Below, piece by piece: positions 41,183 through 64,000 of a stretch of 64,000 bases of DNA (the first letter of the stretch is position 1; every line of letters starts with the position of its first letter). The notes beneath the pieces were generated by a model. It made no database searches. It worked only from the letters and a program-made list of their open reading frames with translations, and was not told the DNA's origin. The stretch covers positions 62,001 to 126,000 of the forward strand of contig NW_026728278.1 in NCBI RefSeq assembly GCF_030684315.1, given 5' to 3'. The stretch is from Stegostoma tigrinum (Eukaryota). A program made the position numbers and the translations under genes.

Positions 41183-42570
41183 ATAGAGAGAGAGATGTTT
41201 AATCAGGAAGGGGGGGATCGAGGGGTTATATTCGAGGCTGAGAGAGAGAGATGTTTAATCAGGAAGGGGGGGGATCGCGGCTGAGAGAGAGAGAGAGATG
41301 TTTAATCAGGAAGGGCGGGGGATCGAGGGTTATATTTGAGGCTGAGAGAGATGTTTAATCAGGAAGGGGGGGATCGAGGGGTTATATTCGAGGCTGAGAG
41401 AGAGAGATGTTTAATCAGGAAGGGGGGGGATCGAGGCTGAGAGAGAGATGTTTAATCAGGAAGGGGGGGATCGCGGGGTTATATTCGAGGCTGAGAGAGA
41501 GAGATGTTTAATCAGGAAGGGGGGGATCGCGGGGTTATATTCGAGGCTGAGAGAGAGAGATGTTTAATCAGGAAGTGGGGGGATCGAGGGGTTATATTCG
41601 AGGCTGAGAGAGAGAGAGATGTTTAATCAGGAAGGGGGGGGGATCGAGGGGTCATATTAGAGGCTGAGAGAGAGATGTTTAATCAGGAAGGGGGGGATCG
41701 AGGGGTTATATTCGAGGCTGAGAGAGAGATGTTTAATCAGGAAGGGGGGGGATCGAGGGGGTCATATTAGAGGCTGAGAGAGAGATGTTTAATCAGGAAG
41801 GGGGGGGATCGAGGGGTTATATTCGAGGCTGAGAGAGAGATGTTTAATCAGGAAGGGAGGGGATCGAGGGGTTATATTCGAGGCTGAGAGAGAGAGATGT
41901 TTAATCAGGAAGGGGGGGGGATCGAGGGGTTATATTCGAGGCAGAGAGAGAGAGATGTTTAATCAGGAAGTGGGGGATCGAGGGGTTATATTCGAGGCTG
42001 AGAGAGAGATGTTTAATCAGGAAGGGGGGTACGAGGGGTTATATTCGAGGCTGAGAGAGAGAGAGAGATGTTTAATCAGGAAGGAGGGGATCGAGGGGTT
42101 ATATTCGAGGCTGAGAGAGAGAGAGAGAGATGTTTAATCAGGAAGGGGGGGGGATCGAGGGGTTATATTCGAGGCAGAGAGAGAGAGATGTTTAATCAGG
42201 AAGGGGGGGGATCGAGGGGTTATATTCGAGGCAGAGAGAGAGAGATGTTTAATCAGGAAGGGGGGGGATCGAGGGGTTATATTCGAGGCTGAGAGAGAGA
42301 GAGATGTTTAATCAGGAAGGGGGGGGGATCGAGGGGTTATATTCGAGGCTGAGAGAGAGAGATGTTTAATCAGGAAGGGGGGGATCGAGGGGTTATATTC
42401 GAGGCTGAGAGAGAGAGATGTTTAATCAGGAAGGGGGGGATCGAGGGGTTATATTCGAGGCTGAGAGAGAGAGAGATGTTTAATCAGGAAGTGGGGGGAT
42501 CGAGGGGTTATATTCGAGGCTGAGAGAGAGAGATGTTTAATCAGGAAGTGGGGGGATCGAGGGGTTATAT
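41183..42570. repeat. ~53-56-bp minisatellite, same unit as 31170-31730
   Basis: gagagagatgtttaatcaggaagggggggatcgaggggttatattcgaggct. Confidence 0.97.
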
Positions 42571-42976
42571 TTGGACGGAGTGTGGGTTGTGGCCAGATTC
42601 CCCCGGGCCCCTCTCATTCGGACCCCAGGGCGTGGGGAGTGAGGGGTGGGGGGTGGTGTCAGAGGGTCGCCGGGCGACTTCCCTGTCTCCGGGGAGACCT
42701 TGACCTTCAGATGCTCGTCACTTTGAGACCGATTGTGAGCTCACAATCTCCAGAGCGACGTTGTGACGACCGTCCTCGGTCGCTGTGACGATTAACGCCC
42801 CCCCCCCCCCGACTTATTTCGGGGGTGGGGGAGCTGTTGTCTGTGGGTGGGGTGGTTGGTACGGGGGGGCTGGTTCCAGGCCATCGCTCCCACTTGCCTC
42901 CTCCTTCGATGCCCGCAGACGGTGGGAGAGGGCAGGGTGAGCTGTGTGACTGGGTGAGGGTGGGCGTTCTTCAGCG

Positions 42977-43034
42977 ATGCATCTCTGTACCTGGACAGTC
43001 GTGGCACTGCTGCAGTTCTCCATCGCTGAACTGG
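42977..43034 (+). CDS. Leader exon of an uncharacterised Ig V-domain membrane protein
   Basis: ATG...MHLCTWTVVALLQFSIAEL G|gtacgt; hydrophobic signal-like peptide; phase 1 donor in frame with the V1 exon. Confidence 0.65.
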
Positions 43035-43057
43035 GTACGTGCGGAGGGTCAGGGCCA

Positions 43058-45103
43058 AGGGAGCGGGCGCCGTCGGAGGGCCGGGGCCGAGGGAGCGGGC
43101 GCCGTCGGGGGGCCGGGGACGAGGGTGCGGGCGCCGTCGGGGGGCCGGGGACGAGGGAGCGGGCGCCGTCGGGGGGCCGGGGACGAGGGAGCGGGCGCCG
43201 TCGGAGGGCCGGGGACGAGGGAGCGGACGCCGTCGGGGGGCCGGGGACGAGGGAGCGGGCGCCGTCGGGGGGCCGGGGACGAGGGAGCGGGCGCCGTCGG
43301 GGGGCCGGGGGACGAGGGAGCGGGCGCCGTCGAGGGGCCGGGGGACGAGGGAGCGGGGCGCCGTCGGGGGGCCGGGGACGAGGGAGCGGGCGCCGTCGGG
43401 GGGGGCCGGGGACGAGGGAGCGGGCGCCGTCGGGGGGCCGGGGACGAGGGAGCGGGCGCCGTCGGAGGGCCGGGGACGAGGGAGCGGGCACCGTCGGGGG
43501 ACGAGGGAGCGGGCGCCGTCGGAGGGCCGGGGACGAGGTAGCGGGCGCCGTCGGAGGGCCGGGGACGAGGGAGCGGGCGCCGTCGGGGGGACGGGGACGA
43601 GGGAGCGGGCGCCGTCGGGGGGCCGGGGACGAGGGAGCGGGCGCCGTCGGAGGGCCGGGGACGAAGGGAGCGGGCGCCGTCGGGGGGACGGGGACGAGGG
43701 AGCGGGCGCCGTCGGGGGGCCCGGGGACGAGGGAGCGGGCGCCGTCGGGGGGGCCGGGGACGAGGGAGCGGGCGCCGTCGGGGGGCCGGGGACGAGGGAG
43801 CGGGCGCCGTCGGGGGGACGGGGGACGAGGGAGCGGGCGCCGTCGGGGGGCCGGGGGACGAGGGAGCGGGAGCCGTCGGGGGGCCGGGGGACGAGGGAGC
43901 GGGCGCCGTCGGGGGGCCGGGGGACGAAGGGAGCGGGAGCCGTCGGGGGGGCCGGGGGGACGAGGGGAGCGGGCGCCGTCGGGGGGCCGGGGGACGAGGG
44001 AGCGGGCGCCGTCGGGGGGGCCGGGGGACGAGGGAGCGGGCGCCGTCGGGGGGCCGGGGGACGAGGGAGCGGGCGCCGTCGGGGGGGCCGGGGGACGAGG
44101 GAGCGGGCGCCGTCGGGGGGCCGGGGGACGAGGGAGCGGGCGCCGTCGGGGGGCCGGGGGACGAGGGAGCGGGCGCCGTCGGGGGCCGGGGGACGAGGGA
44201 GCGGGGCGCCGTCGGGGGGGCCGGGGGACGAGGGAGCGCGCGCCGTCGGGGGGCCGGGGCCGAGGGAGCGGGCGCCGTCGGGGGACGAGGGAGCGGGCGC
44301 CGTCGGGGGACGAGGGAGCGGGCGCCGTCGGGGGACGAGGGAGCGGGCGCCGTCGGGGGACGAGGGAGCGGGCGCCGTCGGGGGGCCGGGGACGAGGGGA
44401 GCGGGCGCCGTCGGGGGACGAGGGAGCGGGCGCCGTCGGGGGGGCCGGGGACGAGGGAGCGGGCGCCGTCGGGGGGGGCCTGGGCCGAGGGAGCGGGCGC
44501 CGTCGGGGGACGAGGGAGCGGGCGCCGTCGGGGGGCCGGGGACGAGGGAGCGGGCGCCGTCGGGGGGGCCGGGGACGAGGGAGCGGGCGCCGTCGGGGGA
44601 CGAGGGAGCGGGCGCCGTCGGAGGGTCGTGGGACGAGGGTGCGGGGCGCCGTCGGGGGGCCGGGGGACGAGGGAGCGGGCGCCGTCGGGGGGCCGGGGGA
44701 CGAGGGAGCGGGCGCCGTCGTCGGGGGGACGAGGGAGCGGGCGCCGTCGGGGGCCGGGGGACGAGGGAGCGGGCGCCGTCGGGGGGACGAGGGAGCGGGC
44801 GCCGTCGGGGGGCCGGGGGACGAGGGAGCGGGCGCCGTCGGGGGGCCGGGGGACGAGGGAGCGGGCGCCATCGGGGACGAGGGAGCGGGCGCCGTCGGGG
44901 GGCCGGGGGACGAGGGAGCGGGCGCCGTCGTGGGACGAGGGAGCGGGCGCCGTCGGGGGGCCGGGGGACGAGGGAGCGGGTGCCGTCGGGGGGCCGGGGG
45001 ACGAGGGAGCGGGCGCCGTCGGAGGGCCGGGGGACGAGGGAGCGGGCGCCGTCGGAGGGCCGGGGGACGAGGGAGCGGGCGCCGTCGGAGGGCCGGGGAC
45101 GAG
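43058..45103. repeat. ~32-bp extremely GC/CpG-rich minisatellite
   Basis: gacgagggagcgggcgccgtcggggggccgggg; fills intron 1 of the Ig V gene. Confidence 0.97.
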
Positions 45104-45222
45104 GTGAAGCTGCTACCACTGGCCCCGAGGTGCTGGGTGGCGCTAGGTGAATGCAGCTGCTTTTCTCGCCATGCTAACCACCTCTCCTTCTCCCCCCCCC
45201 CCCACCCCCCCAACCCCGGCAG

Positions 45223-45628
45223 ATTTTGTGCAGGTTTTTGACATCCTCATCTCAGCCGAAGGCAGCAACTCCTCGTTTCACCCAGAGATCCTGTTCCTGA
45301 ACGGGTCTGGCTTCACCCTCGCCAAAGTCGGTGACATTGCCACCCTGTACTGTCACATCATGTTGTTGGGCGAGTCGGCCGAGCCACGCTACGCTGTACG
45401 CTGGGAGGCGAGTCGCTACGGTGAGCTGACAGTGGCCCAGTTTGACCAGAGCCAGGACGAAGGCCCCTTCATCCACCCGGCCTACCGAGGCAGGCTCAGT
45501 CTGGTCTCCCATGGCCCCGAAAGCCTGCTGCACTTTGACCCTGTCCAGGAGCAGGACTTTGGAGAGTACCTCTGCAAGGGGCATGTGGTGGGCCAGGAGG
45601 GTGAGACCTTCACCTCGCTGTCTGTCCT
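45223..45628 (+). CDS. Ig V-set domain 1 (3' end lost in gap)
   Basis: cggcag|(D)FVQV...GDIATLYC...YAVRW...HPAYRGRLSL...LHFDPVQEQDFGEYLC: B-strand Cys, C-strand Trp, D-strand Arg, DxGxYxC. Confidence 0.88.
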
Positions 45629-45791
45629 NNNNNNNNNNNNNNNNNNNNNNNNNNNNNNNNNNNNNNNNNNNNNNNNNNNNNNNNNNNNNNNNNNNNNNNN
45701 NNNNNNNNNNNNNNNNNNNNNNNNNNNNNNNNNNNNNNNNNNNNNNNNNNNNNNNNNNNNNNNNNNNNNNNNNNNNNNNNNNNNNNNNNNN

Positions 45792-46949
45792 CTCAACTCT
45801 CCATCTCTCTCACTCTCTCTATGTGTACAACTCTCCATCTCTCTCTCTGTGTGTACAAATCTCCATCTCTGTCTCTCTCTCTCACTCTCCATCTCTCTCA
45901 CTCTCTCTCTCTATGTGTACAACTCTCCATCTCTCTCACTCTCTCTCTGTGTACAACTCTCCATCTCTCTCTCTGTGTGTACAAATCTCCATCTCTGTCT
46001 CTCTCTCTCACTCTCCATCTCTCTCACTCTCTCTCTCTCTCTATGTGTACAACTCTCCATCTCTCTCACTCTCTCTATGTGTACAAATCTCCATCTCTCT
46101 CACTCTCTCTCTCTCTCTCTCTCTATGTGTACAAATCTCCATCTCTCTCACTCTCTCTCTCTCTCTCTCTCTCTATGTGTACAACTCTCCATCTCTCACT
46201 CTCCATCTCTCTCTCGACGTGTAGAACTCTCTCAACTCTTCAAATCTCTGTCTCACTCTCCAACTCTCTATCTCTCTCTCTCTGTACATCTCACACTCTC
46301 CATCTCTCTCACTCTCTATGTGTACAACTCTCCATCTGTCCCTCTGTCTCGCTGACACTCTCTGTATATATGACAGCATATCTCTCCATCTGTCCCTCTC
46401 TCTATATATATTACAGCATATCTCTCCATCTGTCCCTCTCTCTCTCTCTGTCTCCCTGACACTGTCTGTATATATTACAGCATATCTCTCCATCTGTCCC
46501 TCTCTCTCTGTCTCCCTGACACTGTCTGTATATATTACAGCATATCTCTCCATCTGTCCCTCTCTCTCTCTCTCTCTGTCTCCCTGACACACTCTGTATA
46601 CATTACAGCATATCTCTCCATCTGTCCCTCTCTCTCTCTGTCTCGCTGACACTCTGTATATATTACAGCANNNNNNNNNNNNNNNNNNNNNNNNNNNNNN
46701 NNNNNNNNNNNNNNNNNNNNNNNNNNNNNNNNNNNNNNNNNNNNNNNNNNNNNNNNNNNNNNNNNNNNNNNNNNNNNNNNNNNNNNNNNNNNNNNNNNNA
46801 TATTACAGCATATCTCTCCATCTGTCCCTCTCCATCTGTCTCCCTGACACTCTCTGTATATATGACAGGATATCTCTCCATCTGTCCCTCTCTCTCTGTC
46901 TCCCTGCCCTGACACTCTCTGTATATATTACAGCATATCTCTCCATCTG

Positions 46950-46995
<46 letters not shown>

Positions 46996-48144
46996 CCTGA
47001 CACTCTCTGTATATATGACAGCATATCTCTCCATCTGTCTCTCTCCCTCTGTCTCCCTGACACTCTCTGTATATACGACAGCATATCTCTCCATCTGTCT
47101 CTCTCCCTCTGTCTCCCTGACACTCTCTGTATATACGACAGCATATCTCTCCATCTGTCCCTCTCCATCTGTCTCCCTGACACTCTCTGTATATATGACA
47201 GCATATCTCTCCATCTGTTCCCCTGTCTCTCTCTCTGTCTCCCTGACACTCTCTGTATATATTACAGCATATCTCTCCATCTGTCCCTCTCTCTCTCTGT
47301 ATATATGACAGCATATCTCTCCATCTGTCCCTCTCTCTCTCTGTCTCCCTGACACTCTCTGTATATATTACAGCATATCTCTCCATCTGTCCCTATCTCT
47401 CTCTCTCTTTCTCCCTGACACACTCTGTATATATTACAGCATATCTCTCCATCTGTCTCTCTCCATCTGTCTCCCTGACACTCTCTGTATATATTACAGC
47501 ATATCTCTCCATCTGTCCCTCTCTCTCTCTCTCTGTCTCCCTCACTCTCTCTGTATATATTACAGCATATCTCTCCATCTGTTCCCCTGTCTCTCTCTCT
47601 GTCTCCCTGACACTCTCTGTATATATTACAGCATATCTCTCCATCTGTCCCTCTCTCTCTCTGTATATATGACAGCATATCTCTCCATCTGTCCCTCTCT
47701 CTCTCTGTCTCCCTGACACTCTCTGTATATATTACAGCATATCTCTCCATCTGTCCCTATCTCTCTCTCTCTGTCTCCCTGACACACTCTGTATATATTA
47801 CAGCATATCTCTCCATCTGTCTCTCTCCATCTGTCTCCCTGACACTCTCTGTATATATTACAGCATATCTCTCCATCTGTCCCTCTCTCTCTCTCTCTCT
47901 GTCTCCCTCACTCTGTCTGTATATATTACAGCATATCTCTCCATCTGTCCCTCTCTGTCTCTCTCTCTCTCTGTCTCCCTGACACACTGTGTATATATTA
48001 CAGCATATCTCTCCATCTGTCCCTCTCCATCTGTCTCCCTGACACTCTCTGTATATATGACAGCATATCTCTCCATCTGTCCCTCTCTCTCTGTCTCCCT
48101 GCCCTGACACTCTCTGTATATATTACAGCATATCTCTCCATCTG

Positions 48145-48182
<38 letters not shown>

Positions 48183-49225
48183 CCTGACACTCTCTGTATA
48201 TATGACAGCATATCTCTCCATCTGTCTCTCTCCCTCTGTCTCCCTGACACTCTCTGTATATACGACAGCATATCTCTCCATCTGTCCCTCTCCATCTGTC
48301 TCCCTGACACTCTCTGTATATACGACAGCATATCTCTCCATCTGTCCCTCTCCATCTGTCTCCCTGACACTCTCTGTATATATGACAGCATATCTCTCCA
48401 TCTGTTCCCCTGTCTCTCTCTCTGTCTCCATGACACTCTCTGTATATATTACAGCATATCTCTCCATCTGTCCCTCACTCTCTCTGTCTCCCTGACACTC
48501 TCTGTATATATTACAGCATATCTCTCCATCTGTCCCTATCTCTCGCTCTCTGTCTCCCTGACACACTCTGTATATATTACAGCATATCTCTCCATCTGTC
48601 TCTCTCCATCTGTCTCCCTGACACTCTCTGTATATATTACAGCATATCTCTCCATCTGTCCCTCTCTCTCTCTGTCTCGCTGACACTCTGTATATATTAT
48701 AGCATATCTCTCCATCTGTCCCTCTCTCTCTCTCTGTCTCCCTGACACTCTCTGTATATATTACAGCATATCTCTCCATCTGTTCCTCTCTCTCTCTCTG
48801 TCTCGCTGACACTCTGTATATATTACAGCATATCTCTCCATCTGTCCCTCTTTCTCTCTCTCTGTCTCCTTCACTCTCTCTGTATATATTACAGCATATC
48901 TCTCCATCTGTCCCTCTCTCTCTCTCTCTCTCTGTCTCGCTGACACTCTGTATATATTACAGCATATCTCTCCATCTGTCCCTCTCTGTCTCTCTGTCTC
49001 CCTGACACTGTCTGTATATATTACAGCATATCTCTCCATCTGTCCCTCTCTCTCTCTCTGTCTCCCTCACTCTCTCTGTATATATGACAGCGTATCTCTC
49101 CATCTGTCCCTCTCTCTCTCTCTGTCTCGCTGACACTCTGTATATATTACAGCATATCTCTCCATCTGTCCCTCTCTCTCTCTCTGACACTCTGTATATA
49201 TTACAGCATATCTCTCCATCTGTCC

Positions 49226-49262
<37 letters not shown>

Positions 49263-50530
49263 CCTGACACACTCTATATATATTACAGCATATCTCTCCA
49301 TCTGTCCCTCTCCATCTGTCTCCCTGACACTCTCTGTATATATGACAGCATATCTCTCCATCTGTCCCTCTCTCTCTCTCTCTCTCTGTCTCCTTCACTC
49401 TCTCTGTATATATTACAGCATATCTCTCCATCTGTCCCTCTCTCTCTCTCTGTCTCCCTGACACTGTCTGTATATATGACAGCATATCTCTCCATCTGTT
49501 CCCCTGTCTCTCTCTCTGTCTCCCTGACACTCTCTGTATATATTACAGCATATCTCTCCATCTGTCCCTCTCTCTCTCTCTGTCTCGCTGACACTCTGTA
49601 TATATACAGCATATCTCTCCATCTGTCCCTCTCTCTCTCTCTGTCTCCCTGACACTCTCTGTATATATGACAGCATATCTCTCCATCTGTCCGTCTCTCT
49701 CTCTCTGTATATATTACAGCATATCTCTCCATTTGTCCCTCTCTCTCTCTCTTTCTGTCTCCCTGACACTCTCTGTATATATTACAGCATATCTCTCCAT
49801 CTGTCCCTCCCTCTCTCTCTGTATATATTACAGCATATCTCTCCATTTGTCCCTCTCTCTCTCTGCATCTCTCTGACTCTCTATATATACACATATATAT
49901 CTTTCTCTTTTTATTTCTCTGATGTTGTCTCTCTCTATATATACACATATCTCTCCATCAGTGTCTCTCACTCTTTCTATCTCTCTGACACTCTCTCTAT
50001 ATACGTACATACACATATATCTCTTCATCTCTCTCTGTTTGTATCTCTCTGATACTCTCCCTCTCTCTCTTTTTCTCTGTCTCTCCATCTCACTCTACCT
50101 GTCTCTGTAGCTCTCAATTTTCTCTGTGTCTCTCTCTCTCTCTCCCTCCCTGTCTGTCTCTCTATCTCCCTCTTTCTCTCTCCCTACCTCTCAGCTCTCT
50201 CTAGGTCTCTCTTTCTTCCCCCCCCCCTTCATATTTCTCTGACCCTGTGTCCCTCTCTCTGTGTCTATCTCTCTATCTCCCTCTTTCTCTCTCTCTCTAT
50301 ACCTGTCAACTCTTTCTCTCACTGTTCCTCTAGCTTTCTTTGAGTGTCTCTTTATCTCCCTGTTTTTCACTCCCTATGGCTCAGCTCTATATCTGTCTCC
50401 CTCTCTCTCTCCCTCTGTTTGTATTTCTCTGACCCTCTGACTGTAGCCCTCCCCCTCCCTCTCTCTGTATCTTTCTGTCTCTCTACCTTCCTGTTTCTAT
50501 GCCCCTACCTCTCAACTCTCTGTCTCTCTT
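45792..50530. repeat. CT-rich compound satellites (~60-bp unit in 46340-49860)
   Basis: tatatattacagcatatctctccatctgtccctctc...tctccctgacactctctg. Confidence 0.95.
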
Positions 50531-51812
50531 TCAGTGGGACACAGGATGCAGGACGGTGATGGAGGGAGAGAGAGATGCAGATGCCAAACAGGATGCATAG
50601 ATTGAGAAAGGAATGAAGAGAAAGGAATGGAGATAGTGAGAAGGGTGGAGAAGGGGATGGAGATCATGAGGATGAATGGAGAGAGAGAGAAATTGAAAGA
50701 GTGAGAAAGGGAGGGAGATAGTAAGAGGGAGAGATAGAGAGAGGAGGAGATAGTGATGGGGGTGGAGTGGTAGAGAGGGATCGAGAGATGGTGGGATAGA
50801 GAGGGAGAGATAGTGAGGGGGATGGAGAGATCTTGAGAATGAGAGGGAGAGTTAGAGGGGGATGGAGAGATAGTGAGGGAGAGAACTGTAGGGACGGGAT
50901 AGAGAGGGAGAGACAGTGAGGGGGCACGGAGAGTGGGAGAGAGTGAAGGGGATGGGGAGATATTGGGAGGGAGTTGGAGAGATAGTGAGAGGGACAGAGA
51001 TTGCGGGGACTGAGAGATATTGGGAGAGAGAACTACAGGGATGGGGTGGAGAGATGTTGGAGGGGGATGGAGGCATAGTGAGAGAGAGAGGGAAAGAGAC
51101 AGACAGAGACAGCTGTAGGGAGGGGATTGGAGAGATAGGGAGGGAGAGAGAAAGATGGGGGTGATGGAGAGAGAGGTACAAGGTGGAGAGATGGAGGGGG
51201 GTGATGGAGGGATAGTGAGAGAGAGGGAGAGACAGCTGTAGGGAGGGAGGGGGAGAGAGAGATGGAGACAGGGTGGAGAGAAGGAGGGGACTGGCATGGA
51301 GGGATAGTGGGAGAGAGAGGGAAAGAGACATCTGTAGGGAGGTGATTGGAGAGGTAGGGAGGGAGAGAGAAAGATGGGGGTGATGGAGAGAGAGGTACAA
51401 GGTGGAGAGATGGAGGGGGGTGATGGAGGGATAGTGAGAGAGAGGGAGAGACAGCTGTAGGGAGGGAGGGGGAGAGAGAGATGGAGACAGGGTGGAGAGA
51501 AGGAGGGGACTGGCATGGAGGGATAGTGGGAGAGAGAGGGAAAGAGACAGCTGTAGGGAGGTGATTGGAGAGGTAGGGAGGGAGAGAGAAACGGGGACAG
51601 GGTGGACAGATGGAGGGATAGTGGGAGAGAGAGCTGTAGAGAGGGGACTGGGGAAATAGGGAGGGAGAGGGGCAGGAGTCACTGAGGCTGCATTGATGCT
51701 GAGCTTGATAGAGCGAGGGAGGGAGGGAAGGAGCGTGGGCAGAGGCCGGGGCGGGGGCAAGAGGGCAGCTTTTGGCTTTTGGGCACTGACTTGCTCCCCT
51801 CCCCTCCCGCAG

Positions 51813-52202
51813 ATACGCAGCCGGAACTGGAGGCCGCTACCACCTCGGACAGTGCCAACCGCACCCTGACGTCCCTAAGCAGCTCGGGCAGGGTGAGGGC
51901 GCGGCTGGGAGCCTCTGCCCAGCTGGAGTGCCGGATGGAGGCGGGCGATGGTGACAGATATGCGGTGCAGTGGGAGACCGCCGGTGGTGGGGTGGTTGTC
52001 TCTCGGGTGGACCAGGGTGAGCCAGCGGCCAACTACCTGAACCCCCGCTACGGGCAGCAGCTGAGCGTCAGCCTCTTGGATGGGACCACGCGCCTCAGTT
52101 TCCACTCGGTGCGCCAGGACGACTTCGGCGAATATGCCTGCAACGTTTGGCTCTCTGGGCACCCTGAGCACACAGTCACTGCGTACACCACGCTGGAGGA
52201 AG
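51813..52202 (+). CDS. Ig V-set domain 2, phase 1-1 exon
   Basis: cccgcag|(D)TQPE...LGASAQLEC...YAVQW...NPRYGQQLSV...LSFHSVRQDDFGEYACNV...LEE G|gtgag. Confidence 0.9.
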
Positions 52203-52249
52203 GTGAGGGATTGGGGGTTTGTCGTTGTGTTGGGGGGGGGGGGGGGTGG

Positions 52250-52730
52250 TCAGGGAGTGGGCGCTGTCGGAGGGTCAGTGCCGAGGGAGCGGGCGCTGTC
52301 AGTGTGGGGGGGCGGTGGTGAGGGAGCAGGCATTGTCGGAGGGTCAGCACTGAGGGAGCGGGCGCTGTCAGTGTGGGGGGGGTGAGGGAGCGGGCGCTGT
52401 CGGAGGGTCAGCGCTGAGGGAGTGGGCGCTGTCGGAGGGTCAGCGCTGAGGGAGCGGGCGCTGTCGGAGGGTCAGCGCTGAGGGAGCGGGCGCTGTCGGA
52501 GTGTCAGCGCTGAGGGAGCGGGCGCTGTCGGAGTGTCAGCGCTGAGGGAGCGGGCGCTGTCGGAGGGTCAGCGCTGAGGGAGCGGGCGCTGTCGGAGGGT
52601 CAGCGCTGAGGGAGCGGGCGCTGTCGGAGGGTCAGCGCTGAGGGAGCGGGCGCTGTCGGAGGGTCAGCGCTGAGGGAGCGGGCGCTGTCGGAGGGTCAGC
52701 GCTGAGGGAGCGGGCGCTGTCGGAGGGTCC
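52250..52730. repeat. 32-bp minisatellite
   Basis: gagggtcagcgctgagggagcgggcgctgtcg. Confidence 0.95.
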
Positions 52731-53186
52731 GCGCCCCTGTGTCTGGGTCACTTTGCTATCACTGGGAGCTCTCTGTGGGTAAATTGAGCGATAACTCTTT
52801 CCCTGACAGCAGTGAGTTCACTGAAAGGTGTAAACACTGCGTTGGCTCGGAGCGAGCTCTCGAGGATGGCGTGGGCTGAGGGCACAGTGCCCCTCGGCAG
52901 GGTCCACTGGACCTTTTCCAGCTGCTGATGCCCATCCCAACACCCTCAGCTGCCACCGGAACTGTGCTCGTTCCACACCATGGCTTCGCTCCGTTTCAAT
53001 ATCATCATGCACTCCCATGCTGACCTTCGTCTTCCCCCCCCCCCTCCCTCTCTCTCTCTCTCTCTCTCCGTCCCCCTCCTCTGTCCGTCCCCCTCCTCTG
53101 TTCCTCCCCCTCCTCTGTGTCCCCCCCCGTCCCCCTCCTCCCCTCACTGTGTCTCTCTGTCTCCCTCCCCTCTCTCTCCCTGCCAG

Positions 53187-53624
53187 AACCCCTCTCTGTC
53201 AGCCCAGTGGTGGAGACCGAGGCCCCCCTGGTGCCCAGTAGCCGTGCCCCGCAGCACCAGACGCCCGGGGCCCGGATCGTGGCCCTCACCACGTCTGGGA
53301 AGGTGACTGCCCGCCTGGGCTCCCCTGCCACCCTGAGCTGCCGGGTCATGGTGGTGAACGCTGAGCCGGAGACCCGGTACCGTCTGGCCTGGTCCTCCCA
53401 ACGCCACCCCAATCTGACACTGGCGCAGATCGACCAGGGGAGGGGGAACGCGGCCTGGGTCCACCCCAGCTACCGGGACCGGCTCAGCCTGACGGCCAAC
53501 GGGGGCTCCAGCCGGCTCCACTTCGGCACCGTCACCGACGAGGACCCCGGCGAGTACGTCTGCAAGGCTGGCATCTCGGGCAGCGGCACCGACGACCTGA
53601 CCTCACCCGTCCTCCTGCTCAAAG
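53187..53624 (+). CDS. Ig V-set domain 3, phase 1-1 exon
   Basis: tgccag|(E)PLSV...LGSPATLSC...YRLAW...HPSYRDRLSL...LHFGTVTDEDPGEYVCKA...LLK G|gtggg. Confidence 0.9.
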
Positions 53625-53844
53625 GTGGGTACGGGGCGCCCCTTTGGGGGTGGGGGGTGGTGGCAGGGGGGATGCCTTGTCGCTTCAGAACTCCCCCCAA
53701 ACCCCACACCCGTCGCCGTCAGAATCCAGATTTATCTGCTCGGCGATGCCCCTGTAGTCAAATAGCTCACCGGTTGGTGATGCCCCTGTCGTCAAATATC
53801 TCACCGATTGGTGATGGCCCTATAGTCAAATAGCTCACTGATTT

Positions 53845-54335
53845 GGAAGTGGAGCCGCAGGTAGACAGGGCGGTGAGGGTGGGGGGGATCGGGACGCTGG
53901 CCTTTATCGGTTGGTGCATTGACTGTAGGAGTCGGGAGGGTTGTGTATTGGTGAGGCTGCTTTGGGAATACCGCGTCCGATCCCGGTCTCCCTGCTACAG
54001 GAAGGATGTTGGGAAAGGGGGACAGGGAGAGGCTGGGGGCTGGGAACGTCGGGAGGGGGGGGGGGGGGTGACCTTACAGAGGTTTATAAAACCCGGAGGG
54101 GCATATATAGGGGGGAGGGGGGTCCGAAACTAGAGGGGCGTGGGTTTAAGGTGGGAGGGGGAAAGGGACCTGAGGGGCAGCGTTTTCACGCAGAGGGTGG
54201 TGCGTGTGTGGGACGAGGAAGTGGGTGGGGGGGGGCTGGTAACATTTGAAAGGATGGGGGCCAAACGCTGGCAGATGGGACTGGACTAGTTCAGGGTCAG
54301 CATGGATGGGTTGGGCCGAAGGGTCTGAAACTGTA
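53845..54335 (+). mobile_element. Degenerate CR1 3' fragment
   Basis: Remnants of QVDRAV..LAFI, ttttcacgcagagggtggtgcgtg, gggccgaagggtctg. Confidence 0.7.
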
Positions 54336-54517
54336 AATGTGTTGAAGGGATGTGGGCCACACGTCAGACGGAAGCGGGTGAGAGGGCAGAACTGTCTCTG
54401 TTTACCACAGCAGCGGCCAGCAGCGTGCGAGCTGACGGTCAGACTCCAGGGGGGGAGGGAGGCGGTGACCATGTCTCCACGCAGCCCCATCTAACCGCCG
54501 TGTCTGTCGTCGCCTCC

Positions 54518-55580
54518 TGCTCTCTCTCGCTCACGCCCTCTCTCTCTCGCGCTCTCACTCTCTCTGTCTGTCTCTCTCGCGTGCTCTCTCTCGGTCTCTC
54601 TCTCGGTCTCTCTCTCGGTCTCTCTCGCGTGCTCTCTCTCGGTCTCTCTCTCGGTCTCTCTCTCGGTCTCTCTCTCGGTCTCTCTCTCGGTCTCTCTCTC
54701 GCGCTCTCTCTCGCGCTCTCTCTCGCGCTCTCTCTCGCGCTCTCTCTCGCGCTCTCTCTCGCGCTCTCTCTCGCGCTCTCTCTCTGTGTCTCTCTCTCGC
54801 GCTCTCTCTCTGTGTCTCTCTCTCGCGCTCTCGCTCTGTGTCTCGCTCTCGCGCTCTCGCTCTGTGTCTCGCTCTCGCGCTCTCGCTCTGTGTCTCGCTC
54901 TCGCGCTCTCGCTCTGTGTCTCGCTCTCGCGCTCTCGCTCTGTGTCTCGCTCTCGCGCTCTCGCTCTGTGTCTCGCTCTCGCGCTCTCGCTCTGTGTCTC
55001 GCTCTCGCGCTCTCGCTCTGTGTCTCTCTCTCGCGCCCTCGCTCTGTGTCTCTCTCTTGCTCTGTCTCTCGCTCTGTGTCTCTCTCGCGCTCTCTTTCGC
55101 TCTCGCGCTCTCTCTCGCGCTCTCTCTCTCTTGCGCTCTCGCTCTTTCTCTCTCTCTCTCTCTGTGTGTCTCTCTCTCGCGCTCTCTCTGTCTCTCTCTC
55201 GCGCTCTCTCTGTCTCTCTCTCGCGCTCTCTCTGTCTCTCTCTCGCGCTCTCTCTGTCTCTCTCTCGCGCTCTCTCTCGCGCTCTCTCTGTCTCTCGCTC
55301 TCTCTCGCGCTCTCTCTGTCTCTCTCTCGCGCTCTCTCTGTCTCTCTCTCGCGCTCTCTCTGTCTCTCTCTCGCGCTCTCTCTGTCTCTCTCTCGCGCTC
55401 TCTCTGTGTCTCTCTCGCGCTCTCTCTGTGTCTCTCTCGCGCTCTCTCTGTGTCTCGCTCGCGCTCTCTCTGTGTCTCTCTCGCGCTTTCTCTCCCTCAC
55501 GCGCGCGCGCCTCTCTCTCTGTCTCGTGCGCTCTCTCTCGCGCGCGCGCTCTCTCTCTCACACTCACTCTCTCTCTCTCG
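54518..55580. repeat. (CT)n-CGCG compound microsatellite
   Basis: Direct inspection; merges with the TM exon acceptor. Confidence 0.95.
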
Positions 55581-55594
55581 CCCCTCTCCTGCAG

Positions 55595-55703
55595 CCAAAC
55601 CGAGGATTCTGCCAGCCTCATCAGAAACTGCGATCCTGTGGCTCATCCTGCATTTCTTTGTCATCCTGTTTGCAATGACCATTGGAATTGGCTCCTGCTT
55701 TCT
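55595..55703 (+). CDS. Transmembrane exon of the Ig V protein
   Basis: cctgcag|(A)KPRILPASSETAILWLILHFFVILFAMTIGIGSCF CT|gtgagt; about 24-aa hydrophobic helix; phase 1 start, phase 2 end. Confidence 0.8.
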
Positions 55704-55809
55704 GTGAGTAAAATCCGTAGAGATGCAGGTGGCTGGTCAGAACGAGGGGGGGAACACTGCCCGCGACACCCCCCCCCCCCGCCAAAACCCACCACATGAC
55801 ACAAGGTCC

Positions 55810-58135
55810 CACTCTACACCGACCCCATGGACCCCAAACCCCTTCCCCGTTCACTCCCGCTCTACACCGTCCCCATGGACCCAAAACCCCTTCCCCGTTC
55901 ACTCCCGCTCTACACCGTCCCCATGGACCCAAACCCCTTCCCCGTTCACTCCCGCTTTACACCGTCCCCCTGGACCCCAAACCCCTTCCCCGTTCACTCC
56001 CGCACTACACCGTCCCCATGGACCCAAACCCCTTCCCCGTTCACTCCCGCTCTACACCGTCCCCATGGACCCAAACCCCTTCCCCGTTCACTCCCGCACT
56101 ACACCGTCCCCATGGACCCAAACCCCTTCCCCGTTCACTCCCGCTCTACACCGTCCCCATGGACCCAAACCCCTTCCCGTTCACTCCCGCTCTACACCGT
56201 CCCCATGGACCCCAAACCCCTTCCCCGTTCACTCCCGCTCTACACCGTCCCCATGGACCCCAAACCCCTTCCCCGTTCACTCCCGCTCTACACCGTCCCC
56301 ATGGACCCCAAACCCCTTCCCGTTCACTCCCGCTCTACACCGTCCCACGGACCCCAAACCCCTTCCCGTTCACTCCCGCACTACACCGTCCCCATGGACC
56401 CAAACCCCTTCCCCGTTCACTCCCGCTCTACACCGTCCCCATGGACCCAAACCCCCTTCCCCGTTCACTCCCGCTCTACACCGTCCCCATGGACCCCAAA
56501 CCCCTTCCCCGTTCACTCCCGCTCTAAACCGTCTCCATGGACCCAAACCCCTTCCCCGTTCACTCCCGCTCTACACAGTCCCCATGGACCCAAACCCCTT
56601 CCCCGTTCACTCCCGCTCTAAACCGTCCCCATGGACCCAAACCCCTTCCCAGTTCACTCCCGCTCTACACCGTCCCCATGGACCCCAAACCCCTTCCCCG
56701 TTCACTCCCGCTCTAAACCGTCCCCATGGACCCCAAACCCCTTCCCCGTTCACTCCCGCTCTACACCGTCCCCATGGACCCAAACCCCTTCCCAGTTCAC
56801 TCCCGCTCTACACAGTCCCCATGGACCCCAAACCCCTTCCCCGTTCACTCCCGCTCTACACTGTCCCCATGGACCCGAAACCCTTCCCCATTCACTCCCA
56901 CTCTACACCGTCCCCATGGACGCCAAACCCCTTCCCCGTTCACTCCCGCTCTACACTGTCCCCATGGACCCGAAACCCTTCCCCGTTCACTCCCACTCTA
57001 CACTGTCCCCATGGACCCCAAACCCCTTCCCCGTTCACTCCCGCTCTACACTGTCCCCATGGACCCCAAACCCCTTCCCCGTTCACTCCCACTCTACACT
57101 GTCCCCATGGACCCCAAACCCCTTCCCCGTTCACTCCCGCTCTACACTGTCCCCATGGACCCCAAACCCCTTCCCCGTTCACTCCCACTCTACACTGTCC
57201 CCATGGACCCCAAACCCCTTCCCCGTTCACTCCCGCTCTACACTGTCCCCATGGACCCCAAACCCCTTCCCCGTTCGCTCCCGCTCTACACCGTCGCCAT
57301 GGACCTGAATCCCATCCCTGTTCAATCCTGCTCTACACTGTCCCCATGGACCCCAAACCCCTTCCCCGTTCACTCCCGCTCTACACCGTCCCCATGCATC
57401 CAAACCCCTTTCCCGTTCACACCCGCTCTACACCGTCGCCATGGACCCAAATCACATCCCCGTTCAATCCTTACACTGTCCCCAGGGACCCCAAACCCCT
57501 TCCCCGTTCACTCCCGCTCTACACCGTCCCCATGGACCCAAATCCCATCCCCGTTCACTCCCGCTCTATACCATCCTCATGGACCCAAACCCCTTCCCCG
57601 TTCGCTCCCGCACTACACCGTCCCCATGGACCCCAAACCCCTTCCCGGTTCACTCCCGCTCTACACCGTCCCCATGGACCCGAAACCCTTCCCCGTTCAC
57701 TCCCGTTCTACACCGTCCCCATGGACCCCAAACCCCTTCCCGTTCACTCCCGCTTTACACGGTCCCCATGGACGCCAAACCGCTTCCCCCTTCACTCCCG
57801 CTCTACACTGTCCCCGTGGACCCGAAACCCTTCCCTGTTCACTCCCGCTCTACACTGTCCCCATGGACCCCAAACCCCTTCGCCGTTCACTCCCGCTCTA
57901 CACCGTCCCCACGGACCCCAAACCCCTTCCCCGTTCACTCCCGCTCTACACGGTCCCCATGGACGCCAAACCCCTTCCCCGTTCACTCCCGCTCTACACC
58001 GTCCCCATGGACCCCAAACCCCTTCCCCGTTCACTCCCGCTCTACACCGTCCCCATGGACCCCAAACCCCTTCCCCGTTCACTCCCGCTCTACACCGTCC
58101 CCATGGACCCCAAACCCCTTTCCCGTTCACTCCCT
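55810..58135. repeat. 47-48-bp minisatellite
   Basis: ctctacaccgtccccatggaccccaaaccccttccccgttcactcccg. Confidence 0.97.
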
Positions 58136-58595
58136 ATGTGGTCCTTCTCCAGGAGTGTTTCACTGGGAACAGTATAAAGAGGGAGCTTTACCCTGTATCT
58201 AACCCCGTGCTGTCACTGTCCCTGAGAGTGTTTGATGGGGCAGACAGTGCAGTGGGAGCCTTACCCTGTATCTAACCCCCTCGTGTTGAGTGTGTTTGAT
58301 GTGGGAGCTGGGGAGACGGTGTGTAGAGAGAGCCGTACCCTGTATCTAACCCCCTCGCATTGGACGTGTTTGATGTGGGGGAGGGAACAGTGTAGGGGGA
58401 GCCGTAACCTGTATCTAACCCCTCATGTTGGGATTGTTTGATGTGGGGGGGAGGGGGGGGGACAGTGTAGAGGGAGCCGTACCATGTGCCTAGCCCTCTC
58501 GCGCTGGGCGAGTTCGACAGGGAACGGAGTTGGGGTGAGGTGTGGAAGGTGGCGGTGAGCCGGACTGAAAGCTGTCGATCTCTTCTCCCCGACAG

Positions 58596-58635
58596 GTCAG
58601 GAACGAAGAATCGAATCCTGCCAGAGCACGTGTGA
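58596..58635 (+). CDS. Cytoplasmic tail / last exon of the Ig V protein
   Basis: ctccccgacag|G TCA GGA...CAC GTG TGA gives (L)SGTKNRILPEHV*; phase 2 fits; AATAAA at 58792. Confidence 0.6.
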
Positions 58636-58791
58636 AGTGCCCAGCGCTGGGAGGGGTTGGTGGGGCGGGGTGGCAGTGTTTTTGGGGGCGGGCGGGGGGT
58701 GTACCGCAGACTCGCCTGAGCCGGAAATGGATGTTTGTTTTGTGATTTTGTCTTTTTTTTTAACAAGAAAATAGCCAAAGTACTTAGTCGT

Positions 58792-58797
58792 AATAAA
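58792..58797 (+). terminator. Polyadenylation signal of the Ig V gene
   Basis: AATAAA, then ATTAAA at about 58808 and GT-rich sequence; U-rich tract upstream. Confidence 0.55.
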
Positions 58798-59240
58798 GAG
58801 TGGAACCATTAAAACGTTGCTGCATGTGTGAGATTAATGTTTGGGGTCTGGCGCTGGGAGGGAACGGCTCAGGTGAAGGGAATGGATGCGGCTGAGTGTG
58901 CGGACCAGGACCCCTCTCCCTCTCGGGGTGAGGGCCGAGGTGTGCTCTTGCCCCAGGAAGCCACTCGATGCTTCAGCGAGAAGGTACAGCCCTTCGCTCG
59001 GGAGTGCCACGGGTCGAAGAGGGTCTTTGAGGCCCTTTGCTTGCATGAGGCTGTGGGTAGTGCGGACGGGGTTGTGGTGTGGGGAGGGCGGACGTTGGGG
59101 GTCAACGGATGGTTTTCTGCGAAGCTACATTCGCAGCTAGCTGAATCCCTACAGTGGGGAAGTAGGCCATTCAGTCCATCAGGTCCAGCCCAGAGAACAT
59201 CCCAGCCAGCACCCCTTATCCCTGTAACCGCGCATTCCCC

Positions 59241-61084
59241 ATGGCCAATCCACCCTAACCGGCACATCCCTGGGTACTACGGGACAATTTAGCACGGCCA
59301 ATCCCACCCTAACCCACACATCCCTGGGCACTACGGGACAATTTAGCACGGCCAATCCACCCTAACCCGCACATCCCTGGGTACTACAGGACAATTTAGC
59401 ACAGCCAATCCCACCCTAACCTTCACGTCCCTGGGCACTACGGGACAATTTAGCACGGCCAATCCACCCTAACCCACACATCCCTGGGTACTACGGGACA
59501 ATTTAGCACGGCCAATCCCACCCTAACCCACACATCCCTGGGCACTACGGGACAATTTAGCACGGCTAATCCACCCTAACCCGCACATCCCTGGGCACTA
59601 CGGGACAATTTAGCACGGCCAATCCACCCTAACCCGCACATCCCTGGGTACTACGGGACAATTTAGCACGGCCAATCCCACCCTAACCCACACATCCCTG
59701 GGCACTACGGGACAATTTAGCACGGCTAATCCACCCTAACCCGCACATCCCTGGGCACTACGGGACTATTTAGCACAGCCAATCCCACCCTAACCTGCAC
59801 ATCCCTGGGTACTACGGGACAATTTAGCACGGCCAATCCCACCCTAACCCGCATATCCCTGGGTACTACGGGACTATTTAGCACGGCCAATCCCACCCTA
59901 ACCTGCACATCCCTGGGCACTACGGGACAATTTAGCACGGCCAATCCACCCTAACCCGCACATCCCTGGGTACTACAGGACAATTTAGCACAGCCAATCC
60001 ACCCTAACCCGCACATCCCTGGGGGCACTACGGGACAATTTAGCATGGCCAATCCCACCCTAACCCGCACATCCCTGGGCACTATGGGATAATTTAGCAC
60101 GGCCAATCCCACCCTAACCCGCACGTCCCTGGGTACTACAGGACAATTTAGCACGGCCAATCCACCCTAACCCGCACGTCCCTGGGCACTACGGGACAAT
60201 TTAGCACGGCCAATCCCACCCTAACCCGCACATCCCTGGGTACTTCGGGACAATTTAGCGCGGCCAATCCACCCTAACCCGCACGTCCCTGGGCACTACG
60301 GGACAATTTAGCACGGCCAATCCACCCTAACCCGCACGTCCCTGGGCACTACGGGACAATTTAGCACGGCCAATCCCACCCTAACCCGCACATCCCTGGG
60401 TACTACAGGACAATTTAGCACGGCCAATCCACCCTAACCCGCACGTCCCTGGGCACTACGGGACAATTTAGCACGGCCAATCCCACCCTAACCCGCACAT
60501 CCCTGGGTACTTCGGGACAATTTAGCGCGGCCAATCCCACCCTAACCCGCTCATCCCTGGACACTACGGGACAATTTAGCACGGCCAGTCCCACCCTAAC
60601 CCGCATATCCCTGGGCACTACGGGACAATTTAGCACGGCCAATCCCACCCTAACCCGCATATCCCTGGGTACTACGGGACTATTTAGCACGGCCAATCCC
60701 ACCCTAACCCGCACATCCCTGGACACTACGGGACAATTTAGCACGGCCAATCCCACCCTAACCCACACATCCCTGGGCACTACGGGTCAATTTAGCACGG
60801 CCAATCCCACCCTAACCCGCACATCCCTGGGCACTACGGGACAATTTAGCACGGCCAGTCCCACCCTAACCCGCACATCCCTGGGCACTACGGGACAATT
60901 TAGCACGGCCAATCCCACCCTAACCCGCACATCCCTGGGCACTACGGGTCAATTTAGCACGGCCAATCCCACCCTAACCCGCACATCCCTGGGCACTACG
61001 GGACAATTTAGCACGGCCAATCCCACCCTAACCCACACATCCCTGGGCACTACGGGTCAATTTAGCACGGCCAATCCCACCCTA
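59241..61084 (-). repeat. 52-53-bp SINE-derived minisatellite, about 35 units
   Basis: ggccaatcccaccctaacccgcacatccctgggcactacgggacaatttagcac; SINE/CR1-type tail at 59140-59240. Confidence 0.9.
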
Positions 61085-61871: not shown

Positions 61872-62072
61872 ATGGCGGCGCTGATTCGGTCGGTGCTGAG
61901 GCCCGTTCCTCGGTGCGTCCTTCTGCGAGGGTCCGGGGCCCACCCCGGCTCCCGGAGGGCCGTCTCTAACAGCGGCCCCGACTCGGCCTCGGGTACGGCC
62001 CTGGCCGGGTCCACGGACCTGCCGCCCGGGTACGTGGGCGCGGAGCAGCCGGAGGTCAACCTGTACGACCAG
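61872..62072 (+). CDS. NDUFB11: NDUFB11 exon 1 (mitochondrial targeting peptide)
   Basis: aagATGGCGGCG; Arg-rich presequence MAALIRSVLRPVPR...PEVNLYDQ|gtaagg; compare human ENLYEK. Confidence 0.88.
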
Positions 62073-62134
62073 GTAAGGGGGGGGGGCTAGACCGGGGAAC
62101 CGCCAAAAAATGACCATTAATCGGCTAAATTCAC

Positions 62135-63030
62135 CTTAAAAACCAATAAAATCATCTTTAAACTCGTGAAAACATCCTAAAATCACCCTGAAAACCAATA
62201 AAATCATCTTTAAACTCGTGAAAACATCCTAAAATCACCCTGAAAACCAATAAAATCATCTTTAAACTCGTGAAAACATCCTAAAATCACCCTGAAAACC
62301 AATAAAATCATCTTTAAACTACTGACATCACCCCCAAAATAATAAAATCATCTCTAAACAGCTAAATTCATGTTTAAAAACAGCTGAAATCACGGTTAAA
62401 GCTGTAAAATAATCTTTTAAACAGCTGAAATCACCCCAAAAATGATAAAAATCATATGTAAACAGCTGAAACAATCTTAAAAACAGCTGAAATCACAGTC
62501 TATAGAGTGAAATAACTTGTAAACAGCTGAAATCACCCAAAACACAATGAAATCATGTTTAAACTACTGAAACCATCCGGAAAACAGCTACCATTTCCTG
62601 AAAAACCAATAAAATCACGCTCAAATGATTGAAATCAACCTTAAAAACCAATAAAATCATATTTAAACAGCTAAAATCATGCTGAAAAACTAATACCAGC
62701 AACCAGTAAACAGCTACAATTACCTATAAACAGCTGAAGTCAGCCTGACCTTAGCTGTTTAAATATGATTTCAACAGTTTATAACAAGATTTTAGCTATT
62801 AATAAGCCGTCAACAGCCAAAATCTCCCTAAAAAACACTAAAATCATGTTTAAAATCATCTCAAGCCTGCATGAATGAAAAGAAATCAGCTTAAATCACT
62901 CACAACATTTAGAATTATCCTATATTAAAAAAAATCATTTCAGAAGCCTGTATGAGTTTTAGTGAAGAAAATAACCCAAAACTAAAGATACAAAATCATC
63001 CTGAAAGACTTCCATTTCACCTCAAAACCT
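62135..63030. repeat. AT-rich 52-bp repeat (3+ perfect copies) decaying into related motifs
   Basis: aaaaccaataaaatcatctttaaactcgtgaaaacatcctaaaatcaccctg. Confidence 0.85.
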
Positions 63031-63062
63031 TTTCTGGCCAGGGTGAGTGAGAGAAATAACCT

Positions 63063-63690
63063 TAAATTGTCCCGTAGTGCCCAGGGATGTGCGGGTTAGG
63101 GTGGGACTGGCCGTGCTAAATTGTCCTGTAGTGCCCAGGGATGTGCGGGTTAGGGTGGGATTGGCCGTGCTAAATTGTCCCGTAGTGCCCGGGGATGTGC
63201 AGGTTAGGGTGGGATTGGCCGTGCTAAATTGTCCCGTAGTGCCCAGGGATGTGCGGGTTAGGGTGGGATTGGCCGTGCTAAATTGTCTCGTAGTGCCCAG
63301 GGATGTGCCGGTTAGGGTGGGATTGGCCGTGCTAAATTGTCCCGTAGTGCCCAGGGATGTGCAGGTTAGGGTGGGATTGGCCGTGCTAAATTGTTCCGTA
63401 GTGCCCAGGGATGTGCGGGTTAGGGTGGGACTGGCCGTGCTAAATTGTCCTGTAGTGCCCAGGGATGTGCGGGTTAGGGTGGGATTGGCCGTGCTAAATT
63501 GTCCCGTAGTGCCCAGGGATGTGCGGGTTAGGGTGGGATTGGCCGTGCTAAATTGTCCCGTAGTGCCCAGGGATGTGCGGGTTAGGGTGGATTGGCCGTG
63601 CTAAATTGTCCCGTAGTGCCCAGGGATGTGTGGGTTAGGGTGGGATTGGCCGTGCAAATTGTCCTGTAGTGCCCAGGGATGTGCGGGTTT
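63063..63690 (+). repeat. 53-bp SINE-derived minisatellite, about 12 units, inverted relative to 59241-61084
   Basis: taaattgtcccgtagtgcccagggatgtgcgggttagggtgggattggccgtgc; SINE-type tail to about 63830. Confidence 0.9.
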
Positions 63691-63962
63691 GCTGTGGGAA
63701 ATGTGGGGTTACAGAGTTGAGAGTGGGTGGGGATTGGGGTTGAATGTTTGTGGTGTTGTGCCCAGGATGCTGTTCAGGGGGCCAACATGGACATGATGGG
63801 CTGATAGGCCACTTTGTGCACTCCATTTAAGGCCCACATCGCAGCAGAGCCACTCCCCACATGGTGCCCTCGCTGGCAGGGGTTTGCCCGGAGAGGGGAG
63901 TGGCGGTTGGTGAACATGGGATATTGTCTCTCACTCCGTCTCTGTGTTTCGCCCCCCGGCAG

Positions 63963-64000
63963 AACCCTGACTACCATGGATTCAGCTCCGACCCTGTGGT
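63963..64000 (+). CDS. NDUFB11: NDUFB11 exon 2 (partial, runs off the window)
   Basis: cggcag|AAC CCT GAC TAC CAT GGA TTC gives NPDYHGFSSDPV; compare human NPDSHGYDKDPV. Confidence 0.88.

Follow-up and report, generated by a model that had tools for sequence, protein, structure and literature searches.

A three-V-domain immunoglobulin superfamily protein of the zebra shark with a near-invariant transmembrane helix and tail

Gene structure and splicing

The window analysed here is a 64,000-nucleotide (nt) stretch of the zebra shark (Stegostoma tigrinum) genome (NW_026728278.1, positions 62,001-126,000; assembly GCF_030684315.1), numbered below from its first letter. On its forward strand, six exons with canonical AG/GT splice ends encode a 482-amino acid (aa) type I protein of the immunoglobulin (Ig) superfamily (IgSF), consisting of a leader, three V-set domains (V1, V2 and V3), a transmembrane (TM) helix and a 13-aa tail ending in EHV. 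Exon 1 (42977-43034; 58 nt, ending in phase 1) carries the start codon and a predicted signal peptide of approximately M1-A18, the cleavage site being placed from hydrophobicity; the same leader is found in the Heterodontus, Scyliorhinus, Pristis, Mobula and Narcine models. Exon 2 (45223-45628) runs into an assembly gap at 45629, which holds its final 8 nt and the donor for an inferred length of 414 nt, and encodes a conserved N-terminal peptide, the sequons N35 and N46, and V1. The hydrophobic stretch F21-G33 of this peptide (45225-45263) lies outside the Ig fold at the predicted mature N-terminus. As a first-pass annotation of the window had described, V2 and V3 each occupy a phase 1-1 exon and follow a spacer that is Ser/Thr-rich in exon 3 (51813-52202; 390 nt) and Pro/Ser/Thr-rich in exon 4 (53187-53624; 438 nt), with a Ser/Thr/Pro content of 46% and 41% against 23% for the whole ectodomain. 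Exon 5 (55595-55703; 109 nt, phase 1-2) contributes a short stalk and the TM helix, including His453 (55651-55653), the small residues A460, G464, G466 and S467, and Cys468 (55696-55698). The coding part of exon 6 (58596-58635, with the stop at 58633-58635) supplies the cytoplasmic tail, which contains no Tyr (L470-V482) and ends E-H-V. A polyadenylation signal, AATAAA, lies at 58792-58797, where the first-pass annotation had ended the gene, and ATTAAA follows at 58808.

Translation of the two assembled halves reproduces residues 1-154 and the final 324 residues of RefSeq XP_059499932.1, the product of zebra shark LOC125450397 (annotated as 'uncharacterized'), without a mismatch. The positions of the six exons are those given in the first-pass annotation. 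Residues 155-158 are the sole part of the 482 aa left incomplete by the gap at 45629, which implies that V1 is also a phase 1-1 exon; the RefSeq model fills these residues. A second gap, at 46671, falls between intronic tandem repeats, and no coding sequence is required from it. Searched with a hidden Markov model (HMM) of the family domain, the window yields three Ig exons and no more. Most of the introns and both flanks (41185-60000) consist largely of minisatellites with periods of 33, 60-64, 32, 24, 48, 54 and 56, some of them very GC-rich.

Among 23 sequencing runs listed, contigs of four were compared with positions 52760-54500. In three runs of a single study (X5, X6 and X7; run type not on record) a contig covers exactly 53187-53624 and continues with 52, 12 and 74 letters, respectively, matching the start of exon 5; both ends of exon 4 coincide with the ends of contig pieces. 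The contig of run X1 reads through into the intron. The upstream contig part of 805 letters (595 and 555 in the others) would fit exons 2 plus 3 by its length. Splicing, on which the first-pass annotation had made the gene depend, is therefore directly visible in these contigs for one junction of five, that of exon 4 with exon 5. A repeat-rich locus with two gaps and a single junction directly seen might be suspected of yielding a mis-joined prediction or a pseudogene. We find this scarcely credible, as it is largely refuted already by the frames that are open throughout, the presence in 13 elasmobranch species of orthologues built from these parts, the RefSeq model and the spliced contigs.

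Three V-set domains of one type

All three Ig domains show the hallmarks of the V-set, namely the B-strand Cys, the C-strand Trp, the D-x-G-x-Y-x-C motif and an extra C' strand. The five motifs that the first-pass annotation had singled out as a private signature are all present in each of V1, V2 and V3, the other two domains being 29% and 34% identical to V1. Mutual local alignment scores among the three are 138-232, compared to a maximum of 88-91 against 61 foreign V domains; the signature thus exceeds the generic V-set background, and the proposed internal duplication is supported. AlphaFold2 predicts three V-set domains with A-G strands and C' strands (predicted local distance difference test, pLDDT, mostly 70-91 in 10-residue blocks), low-confidence linkers and a helix at 443-470, although a predicted template modelling score of 0.37 leaves the arrangement of the domains undefined. 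Exon 2 modelled alone gives a poor prediction (pLDDT 44.7), and the N-terminal peptide is of low confidence in both models.

Family members and age

Relatives occur in ten shark species (Stegostoma, Rhincodon, Hemiscyllium, Chiloscyllium, Heterodontus, two Scyliorhinus, Mustelus, Cetorhinus and Heptranchias) and in three batoids (Pristis, Mobula and Narcine). Nine of the ten matches of a protein search are family members, the remaining one being a background Siglec-1; an exhaustive profile search gave 459 proteins at E ≤0.001, and the best 150 of these, reaching down to near 47 bits, include seven members. RefSeq names the members as 'uncharacterized' or misleadingly (the Heterodontus copy is 'IGSF3-like'), and clear orthology to a named IgSF gene, which would have overturned the first-pass view of the gene as unrecognised, does not emerge from the matches. 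Searches of the open-licence literature by gene identifiers, neighbouring genes and shark IgSF terms found no study of the gene; subscription papers were not covered.

There is one gene per species among the matches, although Heterodontus and S. torazame are each represented by two contigs. The layout of the ectodomain is modular. The shark proteins are V1-V2-V3, and in Pristis and Mobula a repeat lies between V1 and V3; the Narcine model contains V1 and V2 but lacks the V3 of exon 4, and the coelacanth protein has one domain. Pristis XP_051865053.1 and Mobula XP_062891262.1 carry different Pro/Ser-rich tandem repeats in place of V2, and the Pristis name 'C6orf132 homolog' probably derives from this Pro/Ser-rich repeat. 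Chiloscyllium XP_072422689.1 is out of frame inside V3, probably through an assembly error.

The coelacanth protein, LOC106706668 of Latimeria chalumnae (XP_014353418.1, uncharacterized), has one domain with the same private V signature, joined to an unrelated TM helix and tail. On an HMM derived from elasmobranchs only, this domain reaches 80.7 bits, against at most 39 for any non-member among 163 proteins (at most 43 on a smaller HMM), and its best match is V3 (hhalign probability 98.4, 28% identity). From its sequence we judge that the coelacanth protein shares the domain family and is a putative orthologue. Its membership places the origin of the domain family before the shark/bony-fish split, and the gene is accordingly not lineage-specific, as had been suggested. 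For the tree, 94 domains were cut, 16 removed (duplicates, near-duplicates and mis-cuts) and 46 kept, with Mobula V3 and Narcine V1 missed; the 17 family domains in it fall on one side of a branch (93/87, not starred). The coelacanth domain groups with V1 in the free tree, although a V3-constrained tree is 0.46 log-likelihood units higher (approximately unbiased, AU, test p 0.52).

Among the best 150 of the 459 profile matches, none stands out as a member from chimaeras, skates, ray-finned fish, lungfish or tetrapods. The other first-pass suggestion, a loss from tetrapods, amounts to an absence from these matches and is unproven; such an absence is weak evidence of loss, as single-domain relatives below about 47 bits fall outside these matches. 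As a query, the coelacanth protein found only itself among 984 candidates and 0/71 among longer proteins, in a word-based search insensitive enough to have also missed the Mobula and Narcine members with the zebra shark query. The gene is real and represents an IgSF family, apparently undescribed, whose origin dates back at least to the separation of sharks and bony fishes.

Conservation of the membrane helix and tail

The strongest clue to the protein is its near-invariant TM helix and tail, a feature absent from the first-pass annotation, which had nonetheless correctly read the TM His, the Cys near the TM end and the EHV terminus (His453, Cys468 and V482). Between the zebra shark and five other sharks, 20-21 of the 23 TM residues (87-91%) and 11-12 of the 13 tail residues are identical, compared to 54-59% of the ectodomain. 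In three control pairs of IGSF3-like proteins from ray-finned fish (teleosts), TM identity is 33-39% at an ectodomain identity of 36-59%, the pair with 59% in the ectodomain reaching 39% in the TM helix. TM plus tail are conserved above the Ig domains in all five species (Fisher p 2e-6 to 6e-3, the species not being independent). Eleven aligned sequences, from sharks, Pristis and Narcine, are invariant at W449, F459, A460, I463, G464, G466, S467, C468, F469 and L470, and likewise at G472, K474, R476, I477, E480 and V482; at position 453 ten of them have His, and Narcine has Asn. Narcine and Pristis keep this TM helix and tail despite their altered ectodomains.

An E-x-V terminus is found in 11/13 family proteins, the exceptions ending in FGV (Mobula) and LSK (coelacanth). 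Here and below, papers are cited by PubMed Central (PMC) number. The class III PDZ consensus is a C-terminal D/E-x-hydrophobic (PMC2909223), and the same 11 proteins fit it, in keeping with the first-pass proposal of a PDZ ligand; binding itself is predicted from the sequence.

Within the ectodomain V1 is the best conserved Ig domain, with 71-78/116 identical residues in five distant sharks versus 56-62/111 for V2, and is present in every model. N-terminal residues 20-33 are identical at 11-13 of 14 positions in five species, an excess over the Ig domains that is borderline (p 0.02-0.09).

Relationship to known IgSF proteins

Structure comparison places the predicted fold among V-set domains at large. 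Matches are tied at Z 13-15 for MPZ, CD200, VCBP3, VSIG4, nectins, antibodies and T-cell receptors (TCRs), and the top sequence match in the PDB is weak (pIgR, 29 bits). PDB sequence searches and Foldseek returned generic Ig matches, with no EWI, basigin or CD226 chain standing out among them. Protein language-model neighbours at 0.94-0.96, to be taken as leads only, are the CD226-like, EWI, TIM, CD83, SCN4B and MPZ clusters.

Could the protein be a junctional or myelin-type adhesion molecule akin to MPZ, the nectins or the CTX/JAM proteins, with V1 binding in trans to itself or to a relative on an opposing cell, the PDZ-type tail reaching a junctional scaffold and the TM helix serving cis-dimerization? 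We regard this as possible, though on the unlikely side. The prominence of V1, the retained E-x-V and a top tier of tied fold matches that includes MPZ (Z 15.3, root-mean-square deviation 1.9, 114 residues aligned), CD200/CD200R, VSIG4 and nectins are consistent with it, as is the position in the tree of a crinoid JAM-C-like V domain as the closest outgroup (98/96; long branches). However, a tie at Z 13-15 that spans antibodies, TCRs and adhesion molecules is non-discriminating, and conservation is highest in the membrane rather than in the ectodomain. CTX, JAM and nectin proteins have a V domain followed by one or more C-type domains, whereas all three domains here are V-set of one type. MPZ, together with the SCN-beta, CD83 and CD226 proteins, shares further features with the family, being among the top fold or language-model neighbours, and the coelacanth form is a single V domain plus TM helix; the scores are generic to the V-set, though, and there is no family-level sequence match.

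Antigen receptors and UrIg are characterized by a J-type FGxG motif, but [FW]GxG occurs in 0/13 family proteins, as already noted for the zebra shark protein by the first-pass annotation. Antigen receptors and UrIg also carry C domains (PMC12227049), and the only three Ig domains here are all V-set, again in line with the first reading.

The pIgR/CD300/TREM/MDIR group is defined by a second disulfide and a YWC motif in the V domain (PMC3031540). The zebra shark, Heterodontus, Heptranchias, Mustelus and Pristis proteins have two Cys per domain, and YWC is found in 0/13. A receptor of innate immunity or an immunoglobulin-binding receptor, with a short tail and an adaptor recruited through the polar TM residue in the manner of the activating MDIR/CD300 proteins or FcmuR, is thus unlikely in our judgement. 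Its attraction lies in the tandem V domains (as in pIgR and skate MDIR), the short Tyr-free tail, the polar TM residue, the weak PDB match to pIgR and an ectodomain far less conserved than the TM helix; moreover, the TM His of human FcmuR has been proposed to bind an adaptor (PMC6509151). Yet FcmuR has a long tail with a conserved Tyr and is located beside PIGR/FCAMR (same source), while the 13-aa tail here is devoid of Tyr and the neighbours are the housekeeping genes SEPHS2, twinfilin, an RBM5/10-like gene and probably NDUFB11, not a PIGR/FCMR cluster. The TM residue is His or Asn and not Arg/Lys, the matches show one gene per species and not a multigene cluster, and no inhibitory partner was found among them. 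The immune role that the first-pass annotation had entertained has gained no positive evidence in this analysis.

A conserved EWI motif defines the EWI family (PMC2270906), and neither EW[IVL] nor C...EW occurs in any of the 13 proteins, consistent with the earlier observation; a pattern of the same kind did find five EWI proteins among the matches. With IGSF8/EWI-2, PTGFRN/EWI-F, IGSF3 and CD101 the V-V-V protein has in common a tandem V-only ectodomain, a single TM helix with small residues, a juxtamembrane Cys and a short, basic tail. It differs in having one to three domains rather than four or more, a TM His/Asn, a PDZ-type end, a TM helix conserved well beyond that of the IGSF3-like control, and no preferential HMM score: the family HMM gives EWI domains 8-34 bits versus 22-39 for butyrophilin-like and 14-43 for other V domains. 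Descent from the EWI family, with the motif lost and tetraspanin binding kept, would draw on these likenesses and on the RefSeq name 'IGSF3-like', and a tree uniting the family with an EWI clade is not rejected (AU p 0.36), although the unconstrained tree separates the two groups and the EWI rows are ray-finned fish IGSF3-like domains, IGSF8 and PTGFRN not being among the named rows. We hold such a highly diverged EWI member to be quite improbable; in function it would overlap with the cis partner proposed below.

Basigin and neuroplastin combine two to three Ig domains with a conserved TM helix bearing a polar residue, Glu, that serves a membrane partner. The V-V-V protein resembles them and embigin in its number of Ig domains and in the highly conserved TM helix with a polar residue, but all its domains are V-set of one private type, the residue is His/Asn with no Glu inside the helix, and no sequence relationship was seen.

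A putative cis partner of another membrane protein

A helix frozen under a variable ectodomain is most simply read as one that binds a partner in the membrane. We postulate, tentatively, that the V-V-V protein may well associate laterally, in cis, with another membrane protein as its partner, bound through its TM helix. His/Asn453 and the small residues A460, G464, G466 and S467 would form an intramembrane contact, and Cys468, if palmitoylated, would help to hold the protein in place. The C-terminal E-x-V could bind a PDZ scaffold or drive surface export, and the glycosylated V domains, which differ between species in number and identity, would serve as an interchangeable arm for adhesion or spacing. 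By analogy, such a protein would work as EWI-2/EWI-F do with tetraspanins, or basigin/neuroplastin with transporters, while being a member of neither family. The tail, which lacks a Tyr motif through which it could signal by itself, is in agreement with this role, and EWI clusters make up five of the ten rows shown of the language-model search, as a lead only. There is precedent in that EWI-2 requires small TM residues and juxtamembrane palmitoylated Cys for its interaction with CD9 (PMC7105497), and that EWI-F binds CD9 without needing its first five Ig domains (PMC7536822).

Several points weigh against a cis partner. The membrane partner is a postulated one, and the conserved helix could equally serve self-association or an adaptor with an immunoreceptor tyrosine-based activation motif. 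The conservation control comprises a single family, of three proteins, in another lineage. In the Mobula model the TM helix has diverged and the tail is a different one, ending in FGV, and in the coelacanth the TM helix is unrelated and the tail is longer and without a terminal Val; the constraint is therefore not family-wide, unless those models are wrong at their 3' ends. The comparison with basigin and neuroplastin, which bind transporters, draws on general background. Lastly, a terminal Val is common, being found in 145/984 human type I proteins, and acts as an export signal (PMC3779271).

More speculatively, and on balance improbably, the V-V-V protein would represent an IgSF family of the age of jawed vertebrates that grew to three domains in sharks and disappeared from most bony vertebrates, and would be made by its frozen TM helix and tail a dedicated ancillary subunit of an elasmobranch transporter or receptor, for instance one that handles urea or salt or that carries immunoglobulin across epithelia. 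Were the partner an elasmobranch transporter or an immunoglobulin-handling protein, the gene would bear on shark osmoregulation or mucosal immunity; for an ordinary adhesion molecule, its interest would be mainly evolutionary. Either way, an unnamed V-set family common to elasmobranchs and the coelacanth is added to the ancestral jawed-vertebrate surface proteome, from a locus in a GC-rich block often missed by genome assemblies, and the pattern of conservation points to the membrane helix as its working part.

Genomic neighbourhood

The gene order in the window is RBM5/RBM10-like (-), twinfilin (-), SEPHS2 exon 1 (-), the V-V-V gene (+) and probably NDUFB11 (+). SEPHS2 exon 1 (35910-36173, reverse strand), the head-to-head upstream neighbour, matches human SEPHS1 (E 6e-14) and has an in-frame TGA at the selenocysteine position, where human SEPHS1 has Thr. 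In the Mustelus model XP_078062927.1, residues 47-129 near its start are SEPHS2 exon 1 read in antisense (59% identity over 90 aa, E 3e-20), a mis-annotation, from which it follows that the head-to-head arrangement is common to two shark orders. A GC-rich block with SEPHS2 is reported absent from many bird assemblies (PMC13134290); given this and its GC content, absence of the gene from other genomes would again be weak evidence of loss.

Downstream, a probable NDUFB11 (61875-63998, forward strand; first exon and start of the second) is recognised weakly, with NDUFB11 in 10/11 rows and a best E of 0.084; its candidate exon 1 alone as query gave no match. The twinfilin gene (25903-32169, reverse strand) matches TWF1 and TWF2 at 48-53 bits and may be a further paralogue. 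Between SEPHS2 exon 1 and the twinfilin exons no other SEPHS exon was recognised, and the 5' half of twinfilin is missing as well; the 200-N gap at 33947-34146 is therefore likely to stand for far more than 200 nt. Inside or adjoining the RBM10-like gene are broken reverse-transcriptase frames of long interspersed nuclear elements (15824-18759, reverse strand), putatively of the CR1 type.

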